Shown here one piece after another: positions 7,854 to 64,000 of a DNA stretch of 64,000 bases. The DNA is from Narcine bancroftii. Taxonomy: Eukaryota. Under the pieces are notes generated by a model. That model saw nothing but the letters and a program-made list of their open reading frames with translations, was not told the DNA's origin and ran no database searches. Location of the stretch: positions 29,636,001 to 29,700,000 of the forward strand of contig NC_091480.1 in the NCBI RefSeq assembly GCF_036971445.1, given 5' to 3'. Position numbers and translations under genes: made by a program. Position 1 is the first letter of the stretch. The number at the start of each line of letters is the position of its first letter.

Positions 7854-9305
7854 AGCCGCTTTCAGGTGCTTGGATGCAGATAATGCGCCGGCAGACACGA
7901 CTGGGGGAGTGCAGCGGGACATTCAGGTGGCCACGGAGAAGACGCCTTTATGACACCTAACAGGCTTCTTCAGGTGCATTCTCTGTCCCTTGAATTGTCA
8001 TTCAGGTGGCAGCGCTAAAACCACTGTGGGGCGGCCGGCACGGGCTGTCAGTGTGGGGACGTCCCATGCGTGGCATCTCCAGAGCTGGCCACCTGAAGGG
8101 ACAGCTGCACCAGATGTGCCTCTGAGCACACTCTGGCTCCTGTCCCTTTGGGCTGTCAGGTTTGGGATGGCTGGCTGTCAGAGCTGGGACAGCCAGCGCA
8201 GGCTATCAGCACAGGGATCTCCCACGTGGGACTTCCCCACACTGACACCACTGCCCCGCTCCCCCAAAAGCCCGACACAAGCCCCCACACCTGCCCCCCC
8301 AACAGCCCGACACGAGCCCACACACCTCCCCCCAAACAGCCCGACACGAGCCCCCACACCTGCCCCCCCAACAGCCCGAAACAAACTCCCACACCCGCTC
8401 CCCCAACAGTAGCACCCCCAACAGCCTGACACGAGCCCCACACCCGCTCCCCCAAAAGCCCGACACAATCCCCCACACCGCAGGGCGGCCAGCGTGGAGA
8501 TGCCACGCATGGGACGTCCCCACACTGACAGCCCACGCCGGCCGCCCCACAGTCCAGGGACCCACGTTGGGCCGCCAGGAGAGCTGGGTAGCAGTATGGG
8601 GACATCCCCACACTGACCGCCCCACAGTGCAGGGACTCACGCCGGGCCACTGGGAGAGCTGGTGCGGGTACCCATGATGGGCTGCCAGGAGAGCTGGATA
8701 GCGGTATGGGGACATCCCCACAGTGCCAGGCCGTTGGGAGAGCGGGGTAGTGGTATCAGTGTGGGGATGTCCCCGTGCTGACAGCCCACGCCGACTGCGC
8801 CTGACCTGACATCCCACGCAGGGGGGCAGGGGCAGCTGGGAGAGGAGCTGTCAGGCGCTTGCCGACTAACTGTCATCCCCTTAGCAGCTGCTTTCAGGTG
8901 GCTGCATTCATGTGCATGGGGTGACCTCACTACTCCGGCAATTATCCCTCCCAGAGGAGGGTTCAGAGTTTGCCTCACAGGCACCTCCTGCGCTTTCAAG
9001 TGGCCTCCCGACAGCCGCATATTGGCATAATATGCGGCTTTACAAGCAGGGAATTTAGCCACCTGAAAGTGCTTACCTGAACATGCTGGCTGAAGTAGAG
9101 CCGCGTCCGAGCGAACGCCGGCTCCTGTGGACTATGGCCGTAGTCCCACTGCTGCCTTCAGGTGCAACAGGGGATTCTCCGAGCCAGAGAATATACCTAC
9201 AGGAGGAGGGTTAGGTGAGTGCTCCTCCTGGCCGGGTTCTCCACTTTCAGGTGGCCACCGACAGCCACATTAGGAGTTGGGTATTTTGGCCACCTGAAAG
9301 CGGCT
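7854..9305. mobile_element. GC-rich non-autonomous TIR element (PIF/Harbinger-like)
   Basis: 15-bp perfect TIR AGCCGCTTTCAGGTG; many internal ttcaggtg/cacctgaa copies; 59-bp internal inverted repeat; ~33-bp tandem array at 8260-8480. TSD imperfect (tgt/tga). Confidence 0.7.
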
Positions 9306-10728: not shown

Positions 10729-11690
10729 TTACCGTCAAAGCCCCTTAGGAATTTAAATGTTTAAATAAGGTGACCCCTTCATTCTTCAAAACACAGAAGG
10801 CCATTCAGCCCATTGAGTCTATATTGGCTCTCCACTGGAGCAACACATTCAATCCACCACTCACCCCTTCTCTGTAGCCTTGCACAATACCCTCACATTG
10901 TATTTATCCAATTCCTTTTGAAGGCCACGATGGAACCAGTTTTTGCCATGTCTGGGGTCAGTGCAGTCCAGATCCAGTGACAGTGCATCAAAAAGTTCAT
11001 CCACACTTTATTCTCTTCTCCTTTATTTCCTACCTGTGACTCCCTGTCCTTAAATTCAAACCCCCACTCTACCCCCAGTCCCACCACAGAAGCAGCCTCC
11101 CATCCATGGAAGGTATCTATGTAAGCCACAAGCTCAAGAAGGCAGCCTGCATCATAAAGTTTGCCCTTTATCCTCAACACGACCTCTTTCTGCTGCAACC
11201 TTCGGGCAGTCAGTTTGAAAACCTGCGCCTACCTCTAGATTCAACATCAGGTTTTTCTTCCCCAACGGATATCAGGCTCTTGAACCTCCTCAAGCTACCC
11301 TAACTATCAACTCCCACAGGAGCACCATTGCAGTGAACCAAGATTCACTGGTAATGAGTTGTGCAGATGGCTGGCTCCTCCCCCATCTACCCACATATAA
11401 CCTAGATTCCCGCCTAAACCCTGATCCCTCCCTACAGTGAGACCCTACTTTTTGTTCTCCCTCCAGTCATGAAAGCTTTTATTTGCGCTACAACCGTACA
11501 AGCTGTATAATTAAAAGATTATACTTTTGCTTTAGCTACAACTGTGAATATTTACTTACCTAACTTTTTGTCTTATTATCTCTTTTTCTGTCTTCTGCCA
11601 CATTACAGTAATGTGTTTTTGTGGTGGTACACCACTGGCCTACTGCAGGGGGCAACACCTGTACCTGCAGGAGTGTACCATCGGCCTACT

Positions 11691-14600
11691 ACATGGCTCA
11701 AAACAACGTGGTCGATGAGCCGATACAGTGGGGCCACCTGAACTCTCTGCTGGGTAAGGTCCCTTTCACCGTAACACAAGGAGCTACCATTCTGGCTATA
11801 GCCTGGGAACATCTGACTGCTTACTATGTAGCGCCACGGAATGTGGTGCTTGCTCGACATCATTTGCTGACTAGACGCCGGGAACCCAGGGAAAATGATG
11901 CTGCCTATGCACTGGCTCTCGACTCACTGCCAAATGAATGTGATGTCGGGGCAGTCAATGTGCAACAACACCGCAATGCCTTGAAGCTGGATGCTTTAGT
12001 CAACAGGATTGACTCCAGTTACATCCGACAGACGCTGCTAGAGACGGAGCCATTAACCTACGACCGGGCAGTCACTCTAGCCAAAACACTAAGAAGTGCC
12101 ATGTGGTCCAGTGAAATGCTAGAAAAGGAAACATCCAGGACTGCTGGAACCCCGATGGAAAGAAAAATGCTACTTCTGTGATAATAGCTGGCACTCCAGA
12201 CAAGTGCCCGGCTCGATTTGCTACCTGCAGCTATTGTGGGAAACTCGGCCATTTCGCTAAAGCATGTAAGGCAAAAAGTGCTCCCACTGATAAGAAGAGA
12301 AGAACCAAGAAAATGCGTCCTGGAGCTGCAGGAATGGAAGACAACTGTGAAAAGGGGGAATTTTCAGACGAGCCAACTGAATTGAGGAGAGGTGATAGCT
12401 CAATTGACTCCAAAGCTTGGGGGATGTTATGGACTGGAACGGTCAACTATGAAGGGGGAGGTGAATGGTGAGAATCTTGATTGTCTAATAGACTCGGGGA
12501 GTGCTGACAGCTACATCCACGAGAGAGTTGCCAGAGCCTTAAATTTGCAGAGATATCCAGCGAACCGAAAGATATCGATGGCTTGTAGTGAACTTACAAA
12601 AACTGTACGGGACAAGTGTAAAGTTTCTTTAAATTTGCTGGAATATTGCCTGGCTGAAGTGTGGCTCTTTATTATGCCAGAGCTCTGCACCCCTGTGGTA
12701 CTGGGGTTAGATATTCAATCTCAGATGAAAAGTGTAGTGTTAAATTTTGGTAGGCCACTACCTACACTTACCATCCCCTGTGCTAGTTACTGCGGTCTGT
12801 CCACATTAAAGATCAAAGCTCCCTCCTTTTTCAATTATTTATTCCCCCGAGTATCGGCCGATTGCCTCTAAGAGCCGTTCTTACAGCAAAGAGGATCAGA
12901 GTTTATCAAAGCTGAGACCCAGAGATTGCTTAAAGAGGGAGTAATTGAACCCAGTAAGTGTCTGTGGTGAGCCCAGGTGGTAGTTGTGAAAAATCACACT
13001 AAGAAACTATTGGCTATTGACTACAGCCAGACAATCAACTGTTACACTAACCTGCATGCCTACCCCCTGCCACGGATCAATTAAATAGTTAATCAGATAG
13101 CGCAATCCAAAGTGTACTCCACTATCGACCTCAAAGCAGCTTACCACCAAATCCCCATTAAAACAAAAGGAACGACCCTATACAGCCTTTGAGGCTGATG
13201 GGGGTTATACCAGTTTAAAAGGGTACCTTTTGGAGTCACTAATGGTGTGTCAGTGTTTCAGAGGGAAATGGATAAGATTATTAGGATGGATGAGTTACAG
13301 GGTACGTTTCCCTATCTGGATAATGTCACTATCTGTGGGAAAACACAGGCTGAGCACGACAACAACTTGAAGAAATTTTTAGCAACAGCTAAAGAACTCA
13401 ACCTTACATTTAACGAAGGCAAATGTGTGTTCAATGCAACAGAGCTACCCATTCTGGGCTACATTGTCCGCAAGGGCAAAATCCGCCCCGACCCAGAAAA
13501 AATCCCCCCCCCTTAAGAAGTTACCACCCCCAAAATCAGCAAAAGCCCTTAAAAGGTGTATGGGATTCTTTTCCTAATACTGCAAATGGGTTCAGGACTA
13601 CGCCACGAAGTCACGCCCTCTGTTTGACACTAAATCTTTTCCTCTCTCTCCAATGGCCTTGAAGGCTTGAGAAAATTAAAGCTGATATTGCCAAAGCTGC
13701 ACTCTCGTCCATTGACGAGGGTGTCCCATTCCAAGTGGAAACTGATGCCTCAGATTGTGCCTTGACAGGAACCCTTAATCAAAAGGGCAGACCTGTGGCA
13801 TTCTTCTCCCGCACACTACGCAGACCTGAACTTAAACATCCTGCCATTGAAAAAGAAGCCCAGGCTATTATTGAAGCTCTTCACTACTGGAGACATTTTC
13901 TAGCCGGCAGAAAATTTACTCTTGTCACTTATCAGAAATCTGTAGCCTACATGTTCAGTACTAAACACAAAAGTAAAATCAAGAACGATAAGATGGCATG
14001 CTGGCGAATAGAACTCTCAACTTATAATTATGAGATCCAGTACAGACCGGGCAGGTTAAATGATCCCTCTGACGTATTGTCACGATCTGCTGCTGGTGCT
14101 CAGCTGGAGAGGCTAAAAGAGATCCATAGCAGACTGTGCCACCCAGAAGTCACGAGATTCTTCCACTACATAAGGGCTAACAACCTTAGAAGTCGGGAAA
14201 CTGACTAAAAGCTGTCCTGTTTGCACAGAATGCAAACCGCAATACTTCAAAGCTCCAGAGGCCACTCTCATCAAGGCAACCCGACCTTAGCTTAGATTTT
14301 AAAGGTCCGTTACCTTCCAACAACAAAAATGTACATTTCCTTACTGTAATTGACGAATATTCCAGGTTTCCCGTTGCGATACCCTGCTCTGACGTTTCGT
14401 CAGCATCTGTCATTAAATCACTTGACAGAATTTTCAGCATTTTTGTTTTTCCCAATTACATTCATACCAATAGAGGCTCAGCATTCATGAGCGCTGAACT
14501 GTGGCGAGCCATGCTACAAAAAGGAATTGCCACCAGCTGTACCACAAGCTACAACCCGCAGGGCAATGGGCACCTTGAAAGGGCTAATGCTACAGTCTGG

Positions 14601-14995
14601 AAAACTGTTAATCTTGCTTTAAAAACATATGATTACCCTGTAACCCGGTGGCAGGAGGTGCTGCCTGAGGCACTACATTCTATTCGGTCTTTATTGTGTA
14701 CTGCAACAAATCAAACACCTCATGAACGTATGTTTGCCTTTCCTAGGAAATCAGGAACTGTGATGGACTGGCCAGCCTGTTTATCTGAGCCTGGAACCGT
14801 GCTGCTGAAGAGCCACACTCGGGCACGTAAAACAGACCCCGTAGTCCAACCAGTTCATCTACTGCATACTAACCCCAACTACGCTCATGTTAAATTCACA
14901 GACGGGAATACTGACACTGTACCCCTAAGAGATCTAGACTTGCCTGGTTCGCCCCTTCCTCGCACCCCTACTCAGAGTGAGCCTGAGAAGTTGGA
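11691..14995 (+). pseudogene. Decayed Gypsy gag-pol (Zn knuckle, protease, RT, RNase H, integrase) without its own LTRs
   Basis: CSYCGKLGHFAKAC; LIDSGSADSYI; FPYLDNVTICG; ETDASD...RPVAFFSR...IEKEAQA; integrase core; multiple stops and frameshifts. Confidence 0.9.
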
Positions 14996-15192
14996 GGGTG
15001 TCAATCACCCTCCGGGATACAAGTCTGCGCCGGCCTCCTGAAGCTCACTCAGAGTTATTGCAGCTACAGCTGGCCTGGCTCTGTGGAAGTCTTTGTGGAT
15101 TAAAGCCTGTTGTACAGTCTTTACCTTGTGTGTGTCTGATTCTGGCTAACAGCGCACCACAATTTAATCCACAAAATTTTCCCACGGCTGCC

Positions 15193-16980
15193 ATGGAAAA
15201 ACTCCTGAGCACAGGGAGCCTCGAAGTCGACCCACGCCACTCGGAAGCCCAGACACGCTTCGAGATCTAGCAGCACGCGGTCGAGGCAATCATCGAGGCA
15301 CACAAAGGCAGCATCCTGAACTCAGATCGGAAGAGGTTGGTCCTACTCCGGTCAAAGCTGGGTCCCCACGACTTCCAGGCAACCAAAGGCTGCTCTGCAT
15401 ACAAGAGCGCAATGGACACTCTCGAGAACTTGAACAAGCCCCACACGAATGCGGTCTGTGCAAGGTACCTCCTCACCACCCGAGCCCAGCAATCAAGGGA
15501 GACAGGCTGAGTCTTACCTGGGACACCTGTGAGAGTTGGCCCGACCATGTCTGGCTGAACCTGGGGTAGGTGCAGAGGAGGTCGAGAGGCTGATCCGAGA
15601 CGCATTCGTCCGAGTGCTACACTCGAGGCCCGTCCAGCAGAAGCTGCTGGAAGACAATATCTACGCCCTAACCAAGACAGTGGAAGTGATCCAAACCCTG
15701 GAAGCCTTCGATTCCAGGATCCCCCAGGCTCCCTCGTGGCCCTCTCACACTGCAGCTGCAGCCCCAGACCGAGCTGGGGAGTAAAGCGTCGCTGCAGTAG
15801 GTGCCCAGCCCCCCTGTAAGTACTGTGGGTCCTGGTATGGGTCAGACCGACGATTGCGCCACAACTGCCCAGCTCGGAACCAGTATTGTTCCCAATGCGG
15901 CAAGAAAGGACACTTCACTAAAGTGTGCCTCTCAAAACCAGCCTCTCCACCTGCCCTGCGGACCCCTCCATGTGTGCGTGCCGGGTGGCACGATTGTCCC
16001 TGCTACGACTTCCCGACCGCGACGGTGCAACATCAGACCCAGCGACTGTCGCAGCATGTGCCCTGAGCACCTGGACCAGCTCTCGCCCTCGCCAGCGCAG
16101 CTCGTTGAAAACTACAGCGACGTCACGTTCGGCTCACGGCGTGACGCCACTACTGCTGGCCGCGATTATGTCACTTCCCCGGCACAATGAACACGGCTGG
16201 GGAAGGAGGCCAGCCACGCAGCAGGCCCCCACATGCCACTGCCATCTTGGGCCAAGCAGCGGCCGACACGGAGGGCCCCCCGATGACATTGAGAACAGCA
16301 TGGTCAACACGGGCGGTGACCAGGCCACCCTACCGACGTTCCCCATGCCTTCGGGTGCCAACGGCTGCCACACTCTGCACCCCACGACTAACGTGAACGT
16401 GGTCAACACGGGTGATGACCAGGCTGCCCTACCGACGCTCCCCATGCCTCCGGATGCCATAAATCACTATACACAACCAGAGAGCAACGACTCCGACTCT
16501 GAGACAGTCCTGGCCACTACCACGCTGACCAGGGACATCCCTCACGACCTCGGGCACTCTATGATGGATGTGCAAGTCAATGGACAGGAAGTCGGCGACC
16601 GGACTGTCCCTCCCAGCATTGCTCACGTCCCTGGAACCGGTGCTCCTGCGTAAGCATGTATGGACACTCAAGGCCGAAGCCCTGGTCGAGCAGGTTTGCC
16701 TCCTACATGCAAACCACAACTAAGCCTACGTTAGGTTCAGCAGTGGCAGGGAGGACACCATCTCAACCAGGGACCTGGCACCAGCAGGAGCACCCACCAC
16801 ACCACGCCATTCTCCAGCCCAGGACGACACTGACCGGGCAATCATCCCCCTTCCCAGGCAGCTATGGGGCACGCAGGACCTCTTTGACCACCAGGGGCCC
16901 GCTTCAGCCTCCCCCCACCACCCATCCAATATGGTCACAGAAACCCCGGCAGCCGCCGGACCGTCTCAACCTGTAAATAT
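15193..16980 (+). pseudogene. Internally deleted Gypsy internal region (gag + start of protease joined to integrase C-terminus)
   Basis: MEKLLSTGSLEVDP gag start; CSQCGKKGHFTKVC; MMDVQVNGQEV joins at ~16595 to PVLLRKHV...TISTRDLAP. Confidence 0.8.
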
Positions 16981-17951
16981 TGTATGTGTATAGGGGGTAT
17001 GAATCCTTGTTACTGCACCCCCCCCCCGGACAATTTGAAGGAAGGGAGTGAATGTGGTGGTACACCACTGGCCTACTGTAGGGGCAACACCTGTACCTGC
17101 AGGAGTGTACTGCCAGCCTACTGCAGAGGGCAACCTCTATGCCTGCAGGATTGTAAGGAGAAAGGACAACACCTGGCCAGCTGTCAATCAGTCGGCCTGA
17201 AGGGATCAAGCCCCACCGGGTCGGGTGTCAATCACCCTCGAGGATTATAAGCCTGCGCCGGCCTCCCGAAGCTCACTTAGAGTTACTGCAGCTACAGCCA
17301 GCCTGGTTCTGTGGAAGTCTTTGTGGATTAAAGCCTGTTGTACAGTCTTTACCTTGTGTGTGTCTAATTCTGGCTAACAGCACCCCACAGTTTTACATTA
17401 TTGTAGTTGGTGTACATATCTGGGTGACTGCAGCAATAAGGATTTTGGTGCATCTGTACATTTGCAGTCCAGCCTTCTCCAAAGAAAACCGATCCAGCCT
17501 ATCCAACCTACCTTTCTAATTGTAGTAACCCATTCCAAGCACCATTCTCCATAAAGTCCTCCGCAGCCTTCCTATAATATAAAAAACAGAATTTAATGCC
17601 ATAACCCAATAGAGGTCAAGACCAATATTTTACAAAGGTTCAGCATGGGTTCTCATGCGCTTCATGTTGTTAACATAGAACAATAAAGCCCAGTGCAGGC
17701 CCTTCGGCCCTTGATGTTGTGCCAGCCCATATCTTCCTAATAAAAAATACTAAATCCTCCCTACTCCATAACTCTAGTTTTCTTTCACCCATGTGTCTGT
17801 CTAAGAGTCTCTTAAATGGCCCCAATGCCCGCATTTAAAACCAGGAATATTATATGCCTTATCAAACACCTTCTAACCTGCCCTGTCTCTTTCAATTATT
17901 TTCATCCCTGTGCTCTTTCACCCTTTTTGAGCAATAATCTTTAATCTATAT

Positions 17952-23312: not shown

Positions 23313-24559
23313 GAACCCAAAAATTTTCCCTCATGCCTTTTGTGGACTCAATGTGTTGAATGAACTCACCAACTGCTCCCATGACCCCATTCTCTGCCCA
23401 TCCAACTTCTCCTCCTACCTTAACTGTTTTCATTAATGTCTGTCAATTCTCAAGCACCCAGCTATTTTCAGAAATAATAATCTTAACTCCCTTTCATCAA
23501 TTACTTTTGCTAGGCACTTGATGCCATCATCTGTCAAGTGGCTGAAACTGAACCAGACTGTTTGCAACTTTAGTGGCACCTCTGACCTCAGGTATAGTTT
23601 CCAACCTCATATTTGCCTCATTGTCGAATCCACCTATTTCCATCTTCTGAATTACCCACTTCCAGCCCTGCCTCATCTCTTCTGATGGCGAATCCCTTCT
23701 CAGCTCAGCTTCTATCCCAGGTCTTAGTCTCTATAAATAGGGTCATCTAAAACTGATTCTTGTGTCCTAACAGGTACCTTTTCGGTGAGCTTGCTGATCT
23801 ACAGTGGTGTCCAGTTCAGCCAGAATAAAATTTTAAAATACTTTGGCATTGAATCTTCTCCATGTCTCACCTTTCCCTTGCTCTATAGCCTCTTCCTGGC
23901 CAAACCAGACCAAGATATCAGTACCCTTAATCTGGCTTCCTGAACATCCCTGAATTTAAGAGTTCCACCACTGGAGAGTGAGTTAGGAACTGTTAAGGCC
24001 CAAAATACTAGAGCCAAAACCCCACTCCCCTCTCAAGAACTTCTTTGAAGCCTACACCTTTGACCAAGATCCAGCATGGGACTTTAACCGGAATTAAATT
24101 CATTTCTCTCTCCAGATGCTACATTCCCTGCTGTTTCCAGCATTCTGTTTTAATTTCAAATTTCTTACATTTTCAAGCTTTGACCAAGCCTTTGGTTATC
24201 TGCTCTAATATCTCCTTGTGTAGTTCAGCAAGATTCTCCTGATTTGCTGCTGTTTAGTGCATCTTCATTAATTGCCTCCTCTTTCTTTATCTCCAAGGTC
24301 TATTACTCTTAACATTCTCCAATCATAGATCTTTTCCCAGGATCTCAAAACTGTGATTCCTACATCCTTTTACAATCAGAGATAAAACAGCAGTGATTCA
24401 ACAGCAAATGAAGTAATAGTGATTTCATAATGAGAGGAGCAGGAAGGATGTGATTTAAATGCAGATTAAACAATGTGAAAAGATTTAGCAACTACAGATA
24501 GAAATGTAGACAATGGAATAGTGCAACATTAAGTGATGTAAAAGGAGTCTGAGTACTGC

Positions 24560-25110
24560 AAGAGTGAGCAAGTGTTGCCTCAGCAAATAATGTCACAATA
24601 AAAGATGTTACAAGTAATGTTGCAATAAATTATGTCATGACAAGAGATGCTAGTGAAAGATATCACAGTAAATGTTGTCATGACAAGAGATGTTACAGCG
24701 AATGATGTCACAGTAAATGTCATGACAAGAGATGTTGCAGTGAGTGATGTCACAGTAAATGATGTCACAAAAAAGAGTTGAAGTGAGTGATGTCACAGTA
24801 AGTGATGTCACAACAAGAGTTGTTGCAGTGAGTGATGTCACAGTAAATGATGTCATGATGAGATGTTGCAAGGAGAGATGTCACAGTAAAATAGGTCATG
24901 ACAAGAGTTGTTGCAGTGAGTGATATCACAGTAAATGATGTCACAAGAAGAGATGTGGCAGTGAGTGATGTCAGAGTAAATGATGTCACAACAAGCTTTG
25001 TCGGCATAAGTGATGCAAGGAATGAATGAATGATGAGATATATCAGCAACAGTAAGGAGTAATGTCAGACCATGCAATTAAAGGTTGATGTAAGAGTGAT
25101 GTAATAGCAA
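24560..25110. repeat. 15-bp-based minisatellite (tgatgtcacagtaaa / tgttgcagtgag)
   Basis: Many degenerate tandem units; source of the repetitive ORFs at 24580-25077. Confidence 0.85.
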
Positions 25111-29909: not shown

Positions 29910-30567
29910 CCTTGCCCTCCCTCCCTCCATCCTTCCTCACCCCCTCCCTCACTCCCTTTCTCCATCCCTCCCTCCCCCTCTCACTCCTTCCCTCCCTTTC
30001 TCCATCCCTCTCACTTCTTCCCACACTCACTCTCTCTCTCTCCCCTCACTCACTCTCTCTTTCTCTCCCCTCACTCACTCCGTCCCTCCCTCCCCTCTCA
30101 CTCCTTCCCTCCCTTTCTCCATCCCTCTCACTCCTTCCCACACTCACTCTCTCTTTCTCTCCCCTCACTCACTCACTCCGTCCCTCCCTCTCCCTCTCAC
30201 TCCTTCCCTCTCTTTCTCCATCCCTCTCACTTCTTCCCACACTCACTCTCTCTCTCTCCCCTCACTCACTCTCTCTCTCTCCCCTCACTCACTCTCTCTC
30301 TCTCCCCTCACTCACTCACTCCGTCCCTCCCTCCCCCTCACTCCTTCCCTCCCTTTCTCCATCCCTCTCACTTCTTCCCACACTCACTCTCTCTCTCCCC
30401 TCACTCACTCACTCCGTCCCTCCCTCCCCTCTCACTCCTTCCCTCCCTTTCTCCATCCCTCTCACTCCTTCCCACACTCACTCTCTCTCTCCCCCCCTCA
30501 CTCACTCACTCCGCTCCACTCACCCTTTTCCTCCCTCCCTATCTCCTTCATACCCCCCCCCCCCCCC
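29910..30567. repeat. Polypyrimidine/polypurine tandem repeat
   Basis: Almost only C/T with A interruptions; higher-order unit ctcactccttccctccctttctccatcc recurs. Confidence 0.9.
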
Positions 30568-43953: not shown

Positions 43954-46135
43954 TACGCTGGACAACAAATTATTCAAAAGGTTTGCTTCCTGAAAAAAAA
44001 CTTCAAGTTGAACACAAAGATCATTTCAGATTTGCTCTATCATGTAGGAAGTTGGAAAAACATTAAATTAATTTTTATTGAATTTAACCTTAAGTGTACA
44101 CTTGCCACAAATGTATTGCAGCTTTTGCAACATTGACTAGACATTTCTGCTGGATTGAATCTTCCTGAAGACAATATCCTTGGCTTGGCTTCGTGGACGA
44201 AGATTTATGGAGGGGTAATGTCCATGTCAGCTGCAGGCTCGTTTGTGGCTGAGAAGTCCAATGCGGGACAGGCAGACATGGTTGCAGCGGTTGCAAGGGA
44301 AAATTGGTGGGTTGGGGTTGGGTGTTGGGTTTTTCCTCCTTTGTCTTTTGTCAGTGAGGTGGGCTCTGCGGTCTTCTTCAAAGGAGGTTGCTGCCCGCCG
44401 AACTGTGAGGCACCAAGATGCACGGTTTGAGGCAATATCAGCCCACTGACGGTGGTCAATGTGGCAGGCACCAAGAGATTTCTTTAGGCAGTCCTTGTAC
44501 CTTTTCTTTGATGCACCTCTGTCTCGGTGGCCAGTGGAGGGCTCATCATATAACACGATCTTGGGAAGGCGATGGTCCTCCATTCTGGAGATGTGACCTA
44601 CCCAGCGCAGTTTGACCTTCAGCAGTGTGGATTCGATGCTATCGGCCTCTGCCATCTCGAGTACTTCGATGTTGGAGATGAAGTCGCTCCAATGAATGTT
44701 GAGGATGGAGCGGAGACCACGCTGGTGGAAGCGTTCTAGGAGCCGTAGGTAATGCCGGTAGAGGACCCATGATTCGGAGCCGAACTGGAGTGTGGGTATG
44801 GCAACGGCTCTGTATTCGCTAATCTTTGTGAGGTTTTTCATTTGGTTGCTTTTCCAGACTCTTGTGTAGTCTTCCAAAGGCGCTATTTGCCTTGGCGAGT
44901 CTGTTGTCTATCTCATTGACGATCCTTGCATCCAATGAAATGGTGCAGCCGAGATAGGTAAACTGGTTGACCGTTTTGAGTTTTGTGTGTCCGATGGAGA
45001 TGTGGGGGGGCTGGTAGTCATGGTGGGGAGCTGGCTGATGGAGGGCCTCAGTTTTCTTCAGGCTGACTTCCAGGCCAAACATTTTGGCAGTTTCCCCAAA
45101 ACAGGATGTCAAGCGCTGAAGAGCTGGCTCTGAATGGGCAACTAAAGCGGCATCGTCTGCAAAGAGTAGTTCACGGACAAGTTTCTCTTGTGTCTTGGTG
45201 TGAGCTTGCAGGCGCCTCAGATTGAAGAGACTGCCATCCGTGCGGTATCGGATGAAAACAGCGTCTTCATTGTTGAGGTCTTTCATGGCTTGTTTCAGCA
45301 TCATGCTGAAGAAGATTGAAAAGAAGGTTGGTGTGAGAACGCAGCCTTGCTTCACGCCATTGTTAATGGAGAAGGGTTCAGAGAGCTCATTGCTGAATCT
45401 GACCCGACCTTGTTGGTTTTCGTGCAGTTGGATAACCATGTTGAGGAACTTTGGGGGGCATCCGAGGCGCTCCAGTATTTGCCAAAGCCCTTTCCTACTC
45501 ACGGTGTCGAAGGCTTTGGTGAGGTCAACAAAGGTGATGTAGAGTCCTTTGCAAGCAAAATCTTCGCTAGAATTCTCCTAAATATAATAATACCTAGTGT
45601 CGCCGAAAATGTTCTCCCAGAATCACAGTGCAACTTTCGCGCAAACAGAGGAACTACTGACATGGTCTTTGCCCTCAGACAGCTCCAAGAAAAGTGCAGA
45701 GTGAAGACAATAAATACTATTATTAAGTACATTCATTGTGCTATTGCCTGAAGAACATGTGCATTAACATGCATTCAATCCATATCAATGTAATGCACAG
45801 CATCTGTATCTGCAAGCTGCTTTTATAGCCTGACTGCATCTAACCTGAGTAAGCAGGCCCAGGCCTAAGACAACATTTGAATAGCACCTGCACTGAGTGC
45901 ATGCCCAGGCATGCTTGGACTGACCCAAACAGCCTTCTTTGTGGGCAATATACTAGTATACTTAAAATATAACAGGAAATCACAAAAATAGTTAATATCT
46001 GAAAAACAGTAAGTGACAGGAAAATTTTAAGGTGATTTTTCATGATCAATAGCTCAAACTCCATAAAATACACTCAGAGGTGTTTAGGAAGCAAAATCTT
46101 CGTTGTCCAATGTTATTTCTTGCTTGCCTCTGTAA
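43954..46135 (-). repeat. Unit B of the inverted duplication, interrupted by an RTE LINE
   Basis: Homology to unit A resumes on both sides of the LINE TSD. Confidence 0.85.
44177..45701 (-). mobile_element. RTE-clade LINE, 5'-truncated with a 5' inversion
   Basis: FVDLTKAFDTV...GVKQGCVL...LLFADD...YLG RT motifs; C-terminal CxxC; (GCCAA)n tail; 11-bp TSD tgaagacaata (44166-44176 / 45702-45712). Confidence 0.92.
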
Positions 46136-54042: not shown

Positions 54043-57000
54043 AGGCATCAGGAAAAACCGGGGAAGGCAGCGTCTGTGTTATCATCAATTTGTCTTGGTG
54101 CACAGACATGACGGTCATGTCCCAGTTCTGCTCCCCTGACCTGGAGCATCTGGCGATCAAGTGCTCCCCATTCCACCTGCCGAGGGAGTTTACTGCCATC
54201 ATTCTGGTCACAGGGTACATTCCGCCCCAGGCTAATGTCAGGCTGGCACTCGAGGGACTGAGCACTGTGATTAACAGCCATGAGACGGCACATCCTGATG
54301 CCTTCCAATCATTATAGGGGACTTCAATCAGGCCAACGTGAAGAAGTCTCTAACAAACTAGCGTCAACAAGTCACATACGAGACCAGGGGAATAAACTTC
54401 CACACCATGCAAGTGATGAAAAGAATGTAAGGATAAGGAAAATAAACGTGTGGCTGAGGGGCTGGTGTACAAGGCAAGGATTTGGCTTTTTGGATTATTG
54501 GGATCTCTTTTGGGGAGGGCATGATCTTTACAAGAGGGACGAGTTGCACCTAAATCCAAAAGGTGTCAACATTTTGGCAAGTATGTTTGGTACAGCAGTG
54601 GGGCAAGGTTTAAACTAATTTGGCAGGGGTATGGGAACCAGAGTGATAGGAAAAAGGGTAGGGAAGATAAAGTAATGGCCAGGAAAAGTAAAATAGGAAA
54701 AGTAATGTTGGGAGGAGAAAGTAAAAAATCAGATGGTGCAGTGAGTTTTCGGGTCAATGATAGTCTTAAGAAAATTACAAAGAAAAATAATGGGCAGAAA
54801 AATCAAAAGAAAAGGTTACAGAAGTCACTAGATATTAAAAGGACAAAGTGCACAAGGGCACTTTATCTGAATGCCCGCAGTATTAGAAATAAGGTTAGTG
54901 AAATGAGGAGCAAATCGGTACCCATGCCTATGATTTGGTAGCCATCACAGAAACATGGCTACAAGGTATCAGGTGGTGCAAAGAGGTAGACAGGATGGTA
55001 AGGGAGGTGGAGTTGCACTCTTAATCAAAAATGAGCTCCAGGCAGTAGTGAGGAATGATATAAGATCTAAAGAGCATAATGTTGAGTCCATTTGGGTAGA
55101 GATAAAGAATAACAAAGGGAAAAAATTATTGGTGGGTGTTATCTATCGCAATAGTTTAATGGCACAGGAAATAAATAGAGAGATAAGTGAGGCATGTAAT
55201 AATGATATGGCAGTCGTTATGGGGGACTTTAACTTCCACATAGTTTGGGAAAATCAAGTTGGTCGTGGGAGTCTGGAAGAGGACTTCATAGAATGCATCC
55301 GCGATAGCTTTCTTGAGCAGCATGTTAAGGAACCCACAAGAGAAAATGCTCTCCTGGATCTAGTGTTGTGCAATGAGATAGGTAGAGTAAATGATGTAAT
55401 AGTCAGAGACCATCTGGGAAATAGCGATCATAGTATGATTGAATTTCTCATTTAGATGGAAGGGGAAATAGTTAGATCTAAAACTAGATCTTAAACAGGG
55501 GTGACTACCTTAGGATGAGGGAGGAATTGGGCAGAATGGACTGGGAGCACAGGCTAATTGATGAAACAGTTGCGGAACAGTGGAAGATTTTCAAAGAAAT
55601 ATTTTGTAATGCTCAACAAAAATATATTCCGGTCAGGAAAAAGGGCAGCAAGGGAGGGAAAAATCAACCGTGGCTAACAAAGGAAATAAAGGAGAGTATA
55701 AAATTGAAGGCGCAGGTGTACAAAGCTGCAAAGAGCAGTGGGAAACTGGAAGATTGGGAAAACTTTCTTTAAGAGACAACAAGGGGTTACAAAGCGGGTA
55801 ATAAGAAATCAGAGAAAGGATTATGAAAGTAAATTGGCACAAAATATAAAAACAGAAAGCAAAAAATTTTATAAATATATAAAACGGAAGAGGGTGGCCA
55901 GAGTTAACATAGGACCCTTGGAGGATGAGAAAGGAAAACTAGTAGCAAAAAATGAGGAAATGGCCGAGGCATTAAACAATTATTTTGTGTCAGTCTTCAC
56001 AGTGGAAGACATGTCCAGCATGCCCAAGTGCGGAGTTAAGGATGCGAATGTTGGGGAGGGCCTTGATAAAATAGTTGTTACAAAGGAAGTAGTGATGGAG
56101 AAACTAATGGGATTAAAGCCAGATAAATCACCTGGTCCTGATGATGTGCATCCAAGGGCTCTGAAGGAAATGGCAGAAGTTATAGTTGATGCATTGGTGG
56201 TCATATACCAAAATTCCTTGGATTCTGGGCAGGTCCCGGCAGACTGGAAAACAGCAAATATCATCCCACTTTTTAAGAAGGGATGTAGGCAGAAGACTGG
56301 AAATTATCGGCCAATTAGCTTGACGTCTGTAGTTGGAAAAATGCTTGAAGCCATCATTAAAGATGAAATAGTGAAACTTTTGGAACGTAAGGGTTCAATC
56401 AGGCAGATGCAGCATGGTTTTAGAAAGGGAAGATCTTGTTTGACAAACTTGTTAGGATTCTTTGAGGATATAATGGGTGCGGTGGATAGAGGGGAACAGG
56501 TTGATGTTGTATATTTGGATTTCTAGAAAGCGTTTGATAAGATGCCGCACAAGAGACTTAAAAGTAAGTTACAGGAAAGTGGAGTCCGGGGAAATATATT
56601 GGCCTGGATTGAAAATTGGTTGTCTGACAGGAGGCAGAGAGTCGGGATAAATGGGAGTTTTTCAGGTTGGCAGAGAGTGGTAAGTGGGGTGCCGCAGGGG
56701 TCAGTGTTAGGCCCACAACTGTTCATCATTTACATTGATGACTTGGAGGAGGGGACAAAATGTGGTGTAGCCAAGTTTGCGGATGACACTAAATTGAGTG
56801 GAAGAGCAAATTGTAATGAGGATGTGGAGAGTCTGCAGAGAGTATATAGTTAAGCTGGATGAGTGGGCAAAGGTCTGGCAGATGGAGTACAATGTTAATA
56901 AGTGTGAGGTTATCCATTTTGGCAAGAAAAATGAAAGAGCTGAATATTATTTAAAGGGTGAAAAACTACAGCATGCTGTTGTGCAGAGGGACTTGGGAGT

Positions 57001-58080
57001 GCTTGTGCATGAATCGCAAAAAGTTAGGTTGTAGGTGCAGCAGGTTATTAAGAAGGCGAATGGAATGTTGGCCTTCATCGCTAGAGGAATTGAATTCAGG
57101 AGTAGGGAGGTAATGTTGCAACTGTATAAGATACTGGTGAGACCGCACCTGGAGTACTGTGTCCAGTTCTGGTCTCCATATTTGAGGAAGGATATACTGG
57201 CTTTGAAGACGGTCCAGAGGAGGTTTACTAGGTTGATCCCTGGGATGAAGGGGTTGACTTATAATGAAAGATTAAATCATCTAGGATTGTATTCGCTCGA
57301 GTTCAGAAGAATGAGAGGAGATCTTATAGAAACATATAGGATTATGAAGGGTATGGATAGGATAGATGTAGGAAGGTTTTTTGAGCTGGCCGGGGAAACT
57401 AAAATGAGAGGACACAGTCTCAAGATTCAGGGGAGTAGATTTAGGACAGAGATGAGGAAAAATAGTTTTTCCAAGAGAGTAGTGAATGTTTGGAATTCTC
57501 TAACCAGGGAAGTGGTTGAGGCTGCCTCATTAAACATATTTAAAATTTGGTTAGATAAATTTTTAAATTATATAGGAATTAGGGGACATGGAGAGAAGGC
57601 AGGTAGGTGGAGTTAGGTCATAAATTAGGTCAGCCATGATCGTATTGAATGGCGGAGCAGGCTCGATGGGCCATTTTTGGCCTACTCCTGTTCCTACTTC
57701 CGATGTTCCACTTCTACACCACCATGAAGAATGCATACTGAGCCATACCACAATGGCACTTTGGCAAGTCTGATCACCTGGCTGTACTTCTACTCCCAGT
57801 AAACAAGCAGGGACCAAGGACCACAGCACCAGTAGTGAAGATGGTGAAGGTGTGGTTGAGGGAGGTGGAAGAGCGTCCGCAGGACTGCCTTGAATCGGTG
57901 GACTGGAACATACTCAAGAAGTCATCCAGAGACTTGAATGAATATGGAACAGATGTCACCAAATTCATCAATACCTGCATGGACGAGTATGTGTCCACAC
58001 ACAAATACTGGTGTTTCCCAACCAGAAGCCCTGGATGAATCAGAAGATTCACAACCTGCTGAGGCTAAGAACAAGGGCAT
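54043..58080 (+). mobile_element. Rex1/Babar-type endonuclease-region fragment split by a CR1 insertion
   Basis: FCSPDLEHLAIKC.PFHLPREF...YIPP on the left; continues after 57710 (LESVDW). Confidence 0.7.
54408..57709 (+). mobile_element. CR1 LINE: ORF1 esterase C-terminus plus near-complete but disrupted ORF2 (APE + RT)
   Basis: DLYKRDELHLN; YLNARSI, GDFN, SDH; SPGPD; VPQGSVLGP, KFADD; 3' UTR; 12-bp TSD acttc(c/t)acacca (54396-54407 / 57710-57721); several stops and frameshifts. Confidence 0.92.
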
Positions 58081-58470
58081 CTCCCACTGGAAGACTGAGA
58101 TGCCATTCATGATGCCAAAGGAGACCCACAGGAAGTGGTAGAGGCAACCATCCATCTTGAACACTATATACTGGCAATCCTCTGGGTGGATGGGTAACTG
58201 ATGATATGTCGACTTTAGATCTATGGTCGAAAAGACCCAAAACTGGGCAATTTGGTTGACCATAATCGGTGATTTGCGGAAGGGGTATGCATCCAATTGA
58301 GTGTATCTATTGATGATCTGACCATAGTCGATGACCATTCTATTCTTTTCACCATTCCACACTACCACTATCTGTGCTCTCCAAGGGCTAGTGATGGCTT
58401 CAATAACCCCTTCCTTAAGTAAGCACTGTATTTCTGCCAAGATGAAGGCCCTGTCTCTGGCATTGTACTG
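58080..58470 (-). pseudogene. Gypsy RT fragment related to the 11691 pol
   Basis: LLKEGVIE...SPWRAQIVVV...IDYGQIINRYTQLDAYP...STIDLKSTYHQ. Confidence 0.8.
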
Positions 58471-58838
58471 GGTTGGCTGTCGAATTGCTGGTTACAAACG
58501 GTGAGGGGTGAATGGGGCTCATCAAACGCCATCGTCACGCTTTAAAGATGTCATTGAAAATCAAGCTCCAACCGTACATCAGTGCAGAGCTGCAACGTTA
58601 CCATCAGTCTAAAGTTGTCATATACAGTGAACTGTGCATCGATAAAGTCACAATACAGAAACCCTGAATTTCTGCTGTTAATGACTTGGATGCCAAGGAG
58701 ACCTTCTGGTTCACCGGCAGTACTGTGAGGGAGAGGCACCGCATTGTGTCCGGATGTATACAACTCTCTGTGTTCCGCTATTGAAGAAGCAACTCATCAC
58801 GTGACCTTTTACTTTGATGTCCATCATCGTCTTGGTGA

Positions 58839-63436: not shown

Positions 63437-64000
63437 TGTAGTGATAGAGTATTACCACCAGGAGGAGTTGGAGATGGAGCGTGTAGAATCTGGGAAATGT
63501 TGCATCTTGCTAATGTTGTTGCATCTTTAGTAGACTCAAGATGGATGCCTTCCCAAGAGATCTGCATGTTTGTATTCTGTTCTTAGTGCTTTTTGTTTAG
63601 TTAATAAATCTAGTTTTAAAAAGAACCTAAGTTTCTTTATTGTAATGAAAGAATCATCACATGGTACCAGGAGTGGAAGAAAGAGTCAAGTTCTGCTGTG
63701 CACAGGAGTGAAAATCCCCCAACAGTGTGCATAGTGAGTAACCATCAATATCAGCAGTGAATATATGGAGGGTTTAAAAATTCCTAATACTGTAAATTGG
63801 ACTGGAAATATCGACCACCAGTGGAGGCTGTTTAAGCAAAGGTTTATGCTTTACCTGCAAGTGATTGAAATTGATAGCTATCTGGATACACTGAAGATTG
63901 CAATGCTACTTACCATGGCAGGACCTCAAGCTCTAGAGGTTTTCAACAATTTGTTTTTGCTAAGTGTAGAGTGCGTCGAAAGAACCAAAGACTTGTTGAT
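63437..64000 (+). mobile_element. 5' end of a Gypsy (Mag-like) element: LTR 63437-63661, PBS, gag from 63765
   Basis: TGT...ACA LTR with AATAAA; PBS TGGTACCAGGAGTGG; MEGLKIP...WTGN...WRLFKQRF...AGPQALEVFN gag. Confidence 0.8.

Follow-up and report, generated by a model that had tools for sequence, protein, structure and literature searches.

The primer binding site (PBS) of a dead Gypsy element in the 64,000-nucleotide stretch of Narcine bancroftii DNA analysed here (the window) is complementary to a short segment, or arm, of the element's own long terminal repeat (LTR), and comparison with 27 related families points to a self-derived primer. Judging from this comparison and from analogy, it is moderately probable that elements of this clade prime their own reverse transcription in cis, in a Tf1-like manner, from a 13-16-nt arm of the 5' LTR. 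The broader idea that the primer is derived from the element in one way or another, all versions taken together, appears likely on the sequence evidence.

The window element is a dead copy interrupted within its 5' LTR

The element spans 11620-17389 and bears the 5-bp target duplication GTTTT on both sides. Its features, all on the plus strand, are listed below.

11615-11619 (+): left target-site duplication GTTTT, identical to 17390-17394
11620-11693 (+): 5' LTR, first piece, with the TG start; 67 of 73 aligned bases equal 17053-17125
11694-14995 (+): LTR-less, 5'-truncated, broken gag-PR-RT-RH-IN piece of a related family, lying within the 5' LTR (Pfam, blastx)
14996-15161 (+): 5' LTR, second piece (U3 end, R and U5), with the CA end; 153 of 166 aligned bases equal 17223-17389
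15018-15023 (+): degenerate TATA-like box of putative function (sequence; intact counterpart at 17246-17251 in the 3' LTR)
15092-15104 (+): LTR arm, candidate self-primer, exact complement of the PBS, with ATTAAA (15099-15104) as its last six bases
15105-15161 (+): rest of R and U5, with a predicted weak stem after the arm, a GU-rich tract from about 15126 and a predicted U5 stem (fold)
15162-15162 (+): one-base spacer from LTR end to PBS (sequence)
15163-15175 (+): PBS complementary to the element's own LTR arm, without TGG (sequence, family comparison)
15176-15195 (+): helix prolonged by predicted imperfect pairing as far as the gag AUG (15193-15195); relatives do not conserve it
15193-16018 (+): gag, broken by stop codons and a frameshift (profile, blastx)
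16577-16966 (+): C-terminal integrase remnant (blastx, three-frame translation)
17037-17052 (+): polypurine tract, adjoining the 3' LTR start
17053-17389 (+): 3' LTR, 337 nt, with the arm again at 17320-17332, where it has no PBS partner (sequence)
17390-17394 (+): right target-site duplication GTTTT (sequence)

The two 5' LTR pieces have no mutual overlap and match the 3' LTR at about 92% identity; the insert has taken the place of about 97 nt of LTR, corresponding to 17126-17222. The LTR end at 15161 aligns to the 3' LTR end at 17389, after which the duplication GTTTT follows, and in one DNA run (X2) 312 contigs diverge into unrelated flanks after 15161 versus 77 after 15162. A reading of 11620-15161 as a separate upstream element sharing the LTR was rejected, because both 5' pieces belong to a single LTR, of which they cover separate parts, and the duplication flanks 11620-17389 as a whole. 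The host contains many members of the family, 6,851 contigs from a single DNA run covering 451 bases. The copy in the window must be regarded as dead, because its gag is broken, only an integrase tail is left, and RT and RNase H have been deleted from the element itself. Against a profile of clade gag N-termini the window gag scored E 1.8e-18 (with X read at the stop), and its blastx matches to clade polyproteins show 30-34% identity; the integrase remnant gave blastx matches of 37-49% identity, at E about 1e-11 to 4e-14.

The inserted 3.3-kb piece at 11694-14995 carries the Pfam domains gag-asp_proteas, RVT_1, RT_RNaseH and rve, and its blastx matches are to clade polyproteins. Its first in-frame ATG was created at the left junction, and its integrase frame continues into the LTR up to a stop at 15039-15041. 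Contigs with other continuations flank the 14995/14996 joint on either side, and uninterrupted continuations of both parents of the chimera are found among the contigs; the arrangement looks like the product of a template switch or of recombination between two families. The RT catalytic motif, located at 13316-13327 of the window, reads YxDN instead of YxDD in 57 of the 87 clade proteins with a detectable motif, intact single-ORF polyproteins included, and a literature search for YLDN returned nothing relevant. In run X1, a deep contig joins 15015 to 15102, with 15016-15101 swapped for 35 other letters and most of the arm gone; it may represent a deleted LTR variant or a related family.

Other features were seen elsewhere in the window. 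At about 63438-64000 there is a second Gypsy-like LTR, whose element has its TGG PBS at 63662, begins gag near 63762 and is truncated by the end of the window. LINE-type endonuclease and RT fragments (Pfam Exo_endo_phos, RVT_1) occupy 44822-45577 (-), 54934-56523 (+) and 57925-58491 (-), and tandem repeat arrays were found at 24532-25042, 29946-30548 and 8200-8800, with units of about 15, 47 and 35-55 nt.

The PBS is an exact complement of the LTR arm

An earlier, sequence-only reading of this DNA had noted that 15163-15175, beginning one base past the LTR end, is the exact 13-nt reverse complement of 15092-15104, that the arm contains the ATTAAA signal, and that TGG is absent from this PBS while the Gypsy at 63662 does begin with it. 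All of these observations were confirmed. Of 5,000 dinucleotide-shuffled versions of the 3' LTR, none contained a complement of 11 nt to the 24 nt following the LTR, 10 nt being the upper limit. Among the 40 contig variants listed, out of 98, none fell in the arm and one in the PBS (15168, in single contigs).

The same reading had proposed a hairpin that extends to the gag start and forms only at the 5' LTR, and predicted folding agrees with it. The stretch 15074-15195 has a predicted energy of -40.5 kcal/mol (z = -3.94; none of 200 shuffles as stable), and imperfect pairing beyond the PBS reaches the gag AUG in the predicted fold. By comparison, the same stretch at the 3' LTR gives z = +0.91, and the leader of the TGG-type Gypsy at 63662 gives z = +1.22. 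Predicted pair probabilities are 0.75-1.0 for 11 of the 13 arm-PBS pairs.

The element belongs to a Ty3/Gypsy clade in which no chromodomain was detected

The order of domains in 33 relatives and in the inserted piece (gag, then PR-RT-RH-IN, in a single polyprotein in the intact relatives; Pfam) is that of Ty3/Gypsy, the best PDB match being Ty3 Gag-Pol (7q5b, E 8.5e-106). Both the gag and the integrase remnant of the window match this clade. The window element has TG...CA LTRs, a polypurine tract and the 5-bp target duplication, and duplications of this length were also found in 15 of the 24 relatives examined. Polyproteins of intact relatives are 1,160-1,340 aa long. A chromodomain was detected in none of 33 polyproteins, in a scan that matched 20 Pfam families at E 0.01 and had no positive control, and because of this absence we do not file the clade under Tf1/sushi.

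An integrase search returned 703 proteins, 120 of them listed. Among the matches listed, the closest named proteins come from rays and catsharks (61-65% integrase identity), with further named matches in Trichuris suis (a nematode), Nematostella (a sea anemone), Styela (a tunicate) and a stick insect. When the window gag alone was used as a protein query, 110 candidates came up, none at E 0.001, and scans of viral contigs revealed no relatives.

Loci for comparison of leaders were found with an alignment of the 33 polyproteins: 9 in prokaryotic assemblies and 67 from the best 80 of 530 metagenome matches. To these, 14 more genome loci were added. It needs to be stressed that the leaders compared are those of these loci and not those of the named animal proteins. 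Loci in the prokaryotic assemblies are probably animal contamination. Gypsy elements of the clade sit on five contigs of bacterial GTDB MAGs (L002, L003, L005, L007 and L008) with the labels Ekhidna, Leptonemataceae, Rubritalea and Metamycoplasmataceae, probably as contaminating animal DNA.

A plus-strand gag start was found in 50 of the 90 loci, of which 18 were removed as duplicates or copies of the same family and five were set aside. The latter were L023 and L030 (same pairing, LTR solely at the other end of the contig), L068 (no clear pairing), and L086 and L089 (distant gags, L089 with a TGG PBS). The final set comprised 27 families, one representative each, which together with the window element makes 28. 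Ten loci outside the initial filter were three duplicates with the pairing, two with a TGG PBS and without it, and five without a resolvable gag start. The window gag fell out of the gag tree, and its placement is therefore drawn from blastx and the profile score alone.

Arm and PBS change together across 28 families

Complementarity between PBS and LTR is a property of the clade: it reaches at least 9 nt in 27 of the 28 families, and the search for covariation between the two arms found pairing kept, with matched changes on both sides. The longest complement of a PBS to its own LTR has a median of 14 nt in the 28 families, versus a median of 6 nt in 756 non-cognate pairs, where the few runs of at least 11 nt are all between close families. 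At PBS positions 1-13, 353 of 364 cells are Watson-Crick and one is G-U, cells from related families not being independent events. At positions 4-13 the count is 269 of 280, versus 51% for non-cognate pairs in register, and registers slid by 1-3 nt yield 22-37%. Arm sequences vary between families, and the PBS differs between them at most positions past the first three, tracking its own LTR each time. Beyond this core, pairing declines: position 14 is paired in 20 of the 28 families, positions 15-16 in 15, and later positions in 7-10. Such a decay after positions 13-16 suggests that the primer has a defined length.

Nearly all 28 families are laid out alike: the arm is followed after 23-68 nt by the LTR end with its CA, then by a single base and finally by the arm's complement. 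The arm ends in AAA in 25 families and RCC comes next in 26, while the spacer base is A in 25, G in two and T in one (the anchoring pattern assumed one base). In the divergent L056 (about 137-197) the arm ends in AAT, the spacer is T and the PBS starts with ATTT, yet 13 of 14 positions pair, which means that the register survives loss of the AAA|RCC junction. L074 keeps only 11 of 14 pairs. In L045 (about 150-253), gag is preceded by two copies of the PBS, and a further PBS and gag start come after the 3' LTR, which is a tandem arrangement.

Changes between close families were counted in 14 family pairs (nine sisters or near neighbours in the gag tree and five paired by hand): 48 were matched on both sides, four were in the arm only, two in the PBS only, and three were unmatched. 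A further case is provided by L052, which is about 99% identical to its siblings and carries one change in both LTR arms together with the matching change in the PBS; this matched change is absent at six sibling loci, two of which are the same insertion. L016 has an arm substitution in both LTRs and retains the old PBS, and L013, L015 and L057 have a common mismatch at position 14. Both situations fit an intermediate stage or a 13-nt limit, and add no support.

A 4-bp stem follows the arm directly in 19 of the 28 families, compared with 13% in shuffles, although it is weak in the window copy. In the predicted stem next to the arm 20 of 123 pairs are G-U, as opposed to one of 354 in the arm-PBS helix; here the control was derived from folding, whereas the arm-PBS registers had been picked on Watson-Crick counts.

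Self-priming from the 5' LTR arm is the favoured explanation

We favour self-priming because of the matched changes, the strictly Watson-Crick pairing and the fixed one-base offset, which is the place required for the 3' end of a primer. A hairpin serving as structure only would need independent compensation on its two sides and should tolerate G-U pairs as the stem after the arm does. The suggestion of the sequence-only reading that priming is tRNA-independent is thus well supported by comparison, in view of the widespread complementarity, the matched changes and the near absence of G-U.

In the proposed mechanism, the arm in the 5' LTR RNA would anneal to the PBS and, by analogy with Tf1, would be cut at its AAA|RCC 3' end (in the window, between 15104 and 15105), providing the primer for minus-strand DNA. 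The nuclease might be RNase H, again as in Tf1, and the first strand transfer would use the short R stretch from the cut to the poly(A) site. According to retroviral logic, plus-strand synthesis copies the primer and so rebuilds the PBS, and the same step, if it occurs here as in Tf1, would restore the PBS of these elements. We propose that arm and PBS change together, and G-U pairs are missing, because the PBS is recopied from the primer. A mutation of the arm would then appear first in both LTRs (the state of L016) and enter the PBS in a later round (the state of L052). For Tf1, self-primed reverse transcription has been shown experimentally, the first 11 nt of the RNA pairing with the PBS and being cut by RNase H, as described in PMC7175516, and its cDNA is described as carrying a reverse-transcribed copy of the PBS (PMC11042837).

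Some observations seem at odds with this model, among them the incomplete pairing of L074, the unclear pairing of L068 and the lack of a detected third duplex of the Tf1 type (see below). Strong-stop DNA would be short, as no more than 23-68 nt separate the arm from the end of the LTR. Moreover, in the window a TATA-like box 87 nt before the arm end and an initiator-like A at 15047 predict a transcript start about 45 nt upstream of the arm, and not at the arm as a Tf1-like model in cis would have it. No fixed distance from TATA or initiator to the arm was found across the 28 families, a TATA-like motif being present in three of them. Either the TATA-like box of the window is not a promoter, or the 5' end of the primer is made otherwise, for example from the 3' LTR copy of the arm.

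The primer might instead come from a 3' LTR copy

The primer could be the arm copy of the 3' LTR, from the same or a co-packaged RNA, or a short LTR transcript, rather than the capped 5' end in cis. It would be cut at the poly(A) hexamer, its 5' limit would be set later by RNase H, and the RNA would be circularised at initiation. On one hand, this version also accounts for the covariation and for the 13-16-nt limit, requires no start site at the arm, and agrees with the upstream start predicted from the TATA/initiator-like spacing, with the identity of the arm in both LTRs, and with the distance from arm to LTR end, which goes down to 23 nt. The lack of a detected third duplex of the Tf1 'pretzel' type also fits it: when the 25 nt after the PBS were paired with the LTR after the arm, cognate and non-cognate combinations gave -8.4 and -8.5 kcal/mol, respectively (mean rank 0.49, though a short duplex could escape), and the same procedure separates PBS and arm well (-13.0 cognate versus -4.5 non-cognate kcal/mol). 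On the other hand, the strongly predicted 5' hairpin would occupy the PBS first in cis, and the RNA would have to be cut upstream of its usual poly(A) site. Furthermore, we know of no precedent for a primer made from a 3' LTR copy, which counts against the idea, and we consider it rather unlikely.

A more far-reaching combination can be formulated as well. A widespread clade of animal Gypsy elements outside the chromoviruses might have acquired self-priming separately from Tf1; its primer would be an internal segment that terminates on the poly(A) hexamer and is obtained by a second cut or from the 3' LTR copy, so that formation of the 3' end and priming would take place at one site. We offer this only as a tentative speculation. 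For the following comparisons, priming in cis by the 5' LTR arm is retained as the preferred reading.

Hiding of the poly(A) signal is at most a secondary role of the helix

The sequence-only reading also suggested that the hairpin suppresses premature polyadenylation and masks the gag start, and one may ask whether the helix is purely regulatory and conceals the 5' poly(A) signal and the gag AUG while something else primes. Indeed, AATAAA or ATTAAA stands at the 3' end of the arm in 18 of the 28 families (in three it was read from the PBS or 3' LTR, the 5' arm being mutated), the predicted hairpin forms solely at the 5' LTR, and the AUG of the window copy is predicted to be paired (P 0.55). 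However, the remaining 10 families have a helix of the same quality that contains no canonical hexamer (126 of 130 cells Watson-Crick), three of them (L018, L021 and L056) having a hexamer outside the helix, and for this reason occlusion is not the conserved function. Masking of the gag start is not conserved either: the AUG, located 14-46 nt from the PBS start in the 28 families, pairs with the LTR side in only 11. A purely regulatory helix is also hard to reconcile with a 3' arm that always begins one base past the LTR end, where a primer must sit, or with a single G-U among 354 paired cells, and no other primer site is evident. This explanation is therefore improbable as a whole, and the suggested suppression of polyadenylation stands as a secondary role at most; in roughly two families out of three, hiding of the 5' poly(A) signal is plausible as a side benefit of self-priming.

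In HIV-1, which is tRNA-primed, the 5' poly(A) hexamer is held in a hairpin inside R. The clade resembles it in holding this hexamer in a helix of the 5' LTR, but the strand that pairs with it in the clade is the PBS itself, and the helix of 10 of the 28 families lacks the hexamer.

A tRNA fragment or a chance repeat does not account for the pairing

A TGG PBS was found in none of the 28 families. It is present at 63662 of the window and in L089, L083 and L084, and in these four controls the longest complement is 5 nt. ARAGORN detected no tRNA in the window or the loci, and an Rfam search of 14900-15400 gave two chance-level matches only, with no tRNA at E up to 10. Half-tRNA primers do exist in some Copia lineages, as reported in PMC6317226, and the PBS might in principle bind an internal or 5' tRNA fragment that resembles the LTR arm. 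We regard this as very improbable, considering the Rfam result and the fact that a fixed host RNA cannot explain a family-specific PBS that tracks its own LTR; the PBS is not conserved across the families. Finally, although 7 of 2,646 tiled 24-nt windows in this 64 kb, the PBS site itself being one of them, reach at least 13 nt of complement to the preceding 340 nt, the family comparison refutes a chance inverted repeat, leaving it a negligible probability, since the same register recurs in 27 of 28 families with different sequences.

The clade compared with known self-priming elements

If the preferred reading, priming by the element's own 5' LTR arm, is true, a large group of animal Gypsy elements self-primes. 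The trait would likely have arisen separately there and would involve a different RNA architecture, and independence from tRNA would be a recurrent solution. Such elements might be predicted to escape silencing by tRNA fragments directed at the PBS, and annotation tools based on a tRNA PBS would overlook or under-score them. Matched changes of arm and PBS in young copies may also serve as a purely genomic assay for the primer of an element.

No report of self-priming in this clade was found in the literature searched, in which subscription journals were thinly covered, so that prior notice is possible. Cigr-1 of Ciona intestinalis ('Gypsy-Cigr') is short, has a single ORF of about 1,200 aa and comes from marine animals. 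Judging by description only, from the polyprotein size and the marine hosts, we assume that the present clade may be the Cigr-1 clade. Families of the latter have been reported in molluscs (PMC6238403).

Self-priming has already been proposed outside Tf1/sushi. For plant Tcn1 chromoviruses and TAR (Houba/Osr-1) Copia elements it was predicted, as in our case, from LTR-PBS complementarity, with at least 10 nt starting 0-5 nt after the LTR (PMC6317226). These are other lineages in other hosts, and that account, in the parts dealing with them, mentions no overlap with a poly(A) hexamer.

The closest parallel is the Tf1/sushi group, to which the sequence-only reading had likened the element. The members compared were Tf1/Tf2 of Schizosaccharomyces pombe, Tj1, Tosmo1-3, Tcry1 and Tf1/sushi chromoviruses including pufferfish sushi-ichi. 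The group is described as having no tRNA PBS, the PBS right after the LTR-terminal CA being complementary to a short 5' LTR stretch (PMC7175516, PMC4600332, bioRxiv 10.1101/2022.12.06.519325), and self-priming has been predicted for vertebrate sushi elements (PMC4600332). As regards the mechanism the likeness holds, since both are Ty3/Gypsy elements whose PBS after the terminal CA complements a segment of the 5' LTR. As regards membership it does not: the clade lacks a detected chromodomain (0 of 33) and the third duplex of the 'pretzel' leader described for Tf1 (bioRxiv 10.1101/2022.12.06.519325). Its RT motif is often YxDN. The arm itself is also different, with 13-16 nt as compared with 11 in Tf1; it stops 23-68 nt short of the LTR end, in most families on the poly(A) hexamer and with a small stem behind it. 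Whereas the Tf1 primer is the very 5' end of the RNA, the arm in the window family would have an internal position if transcription began at the start predicted from the TATA-like box.
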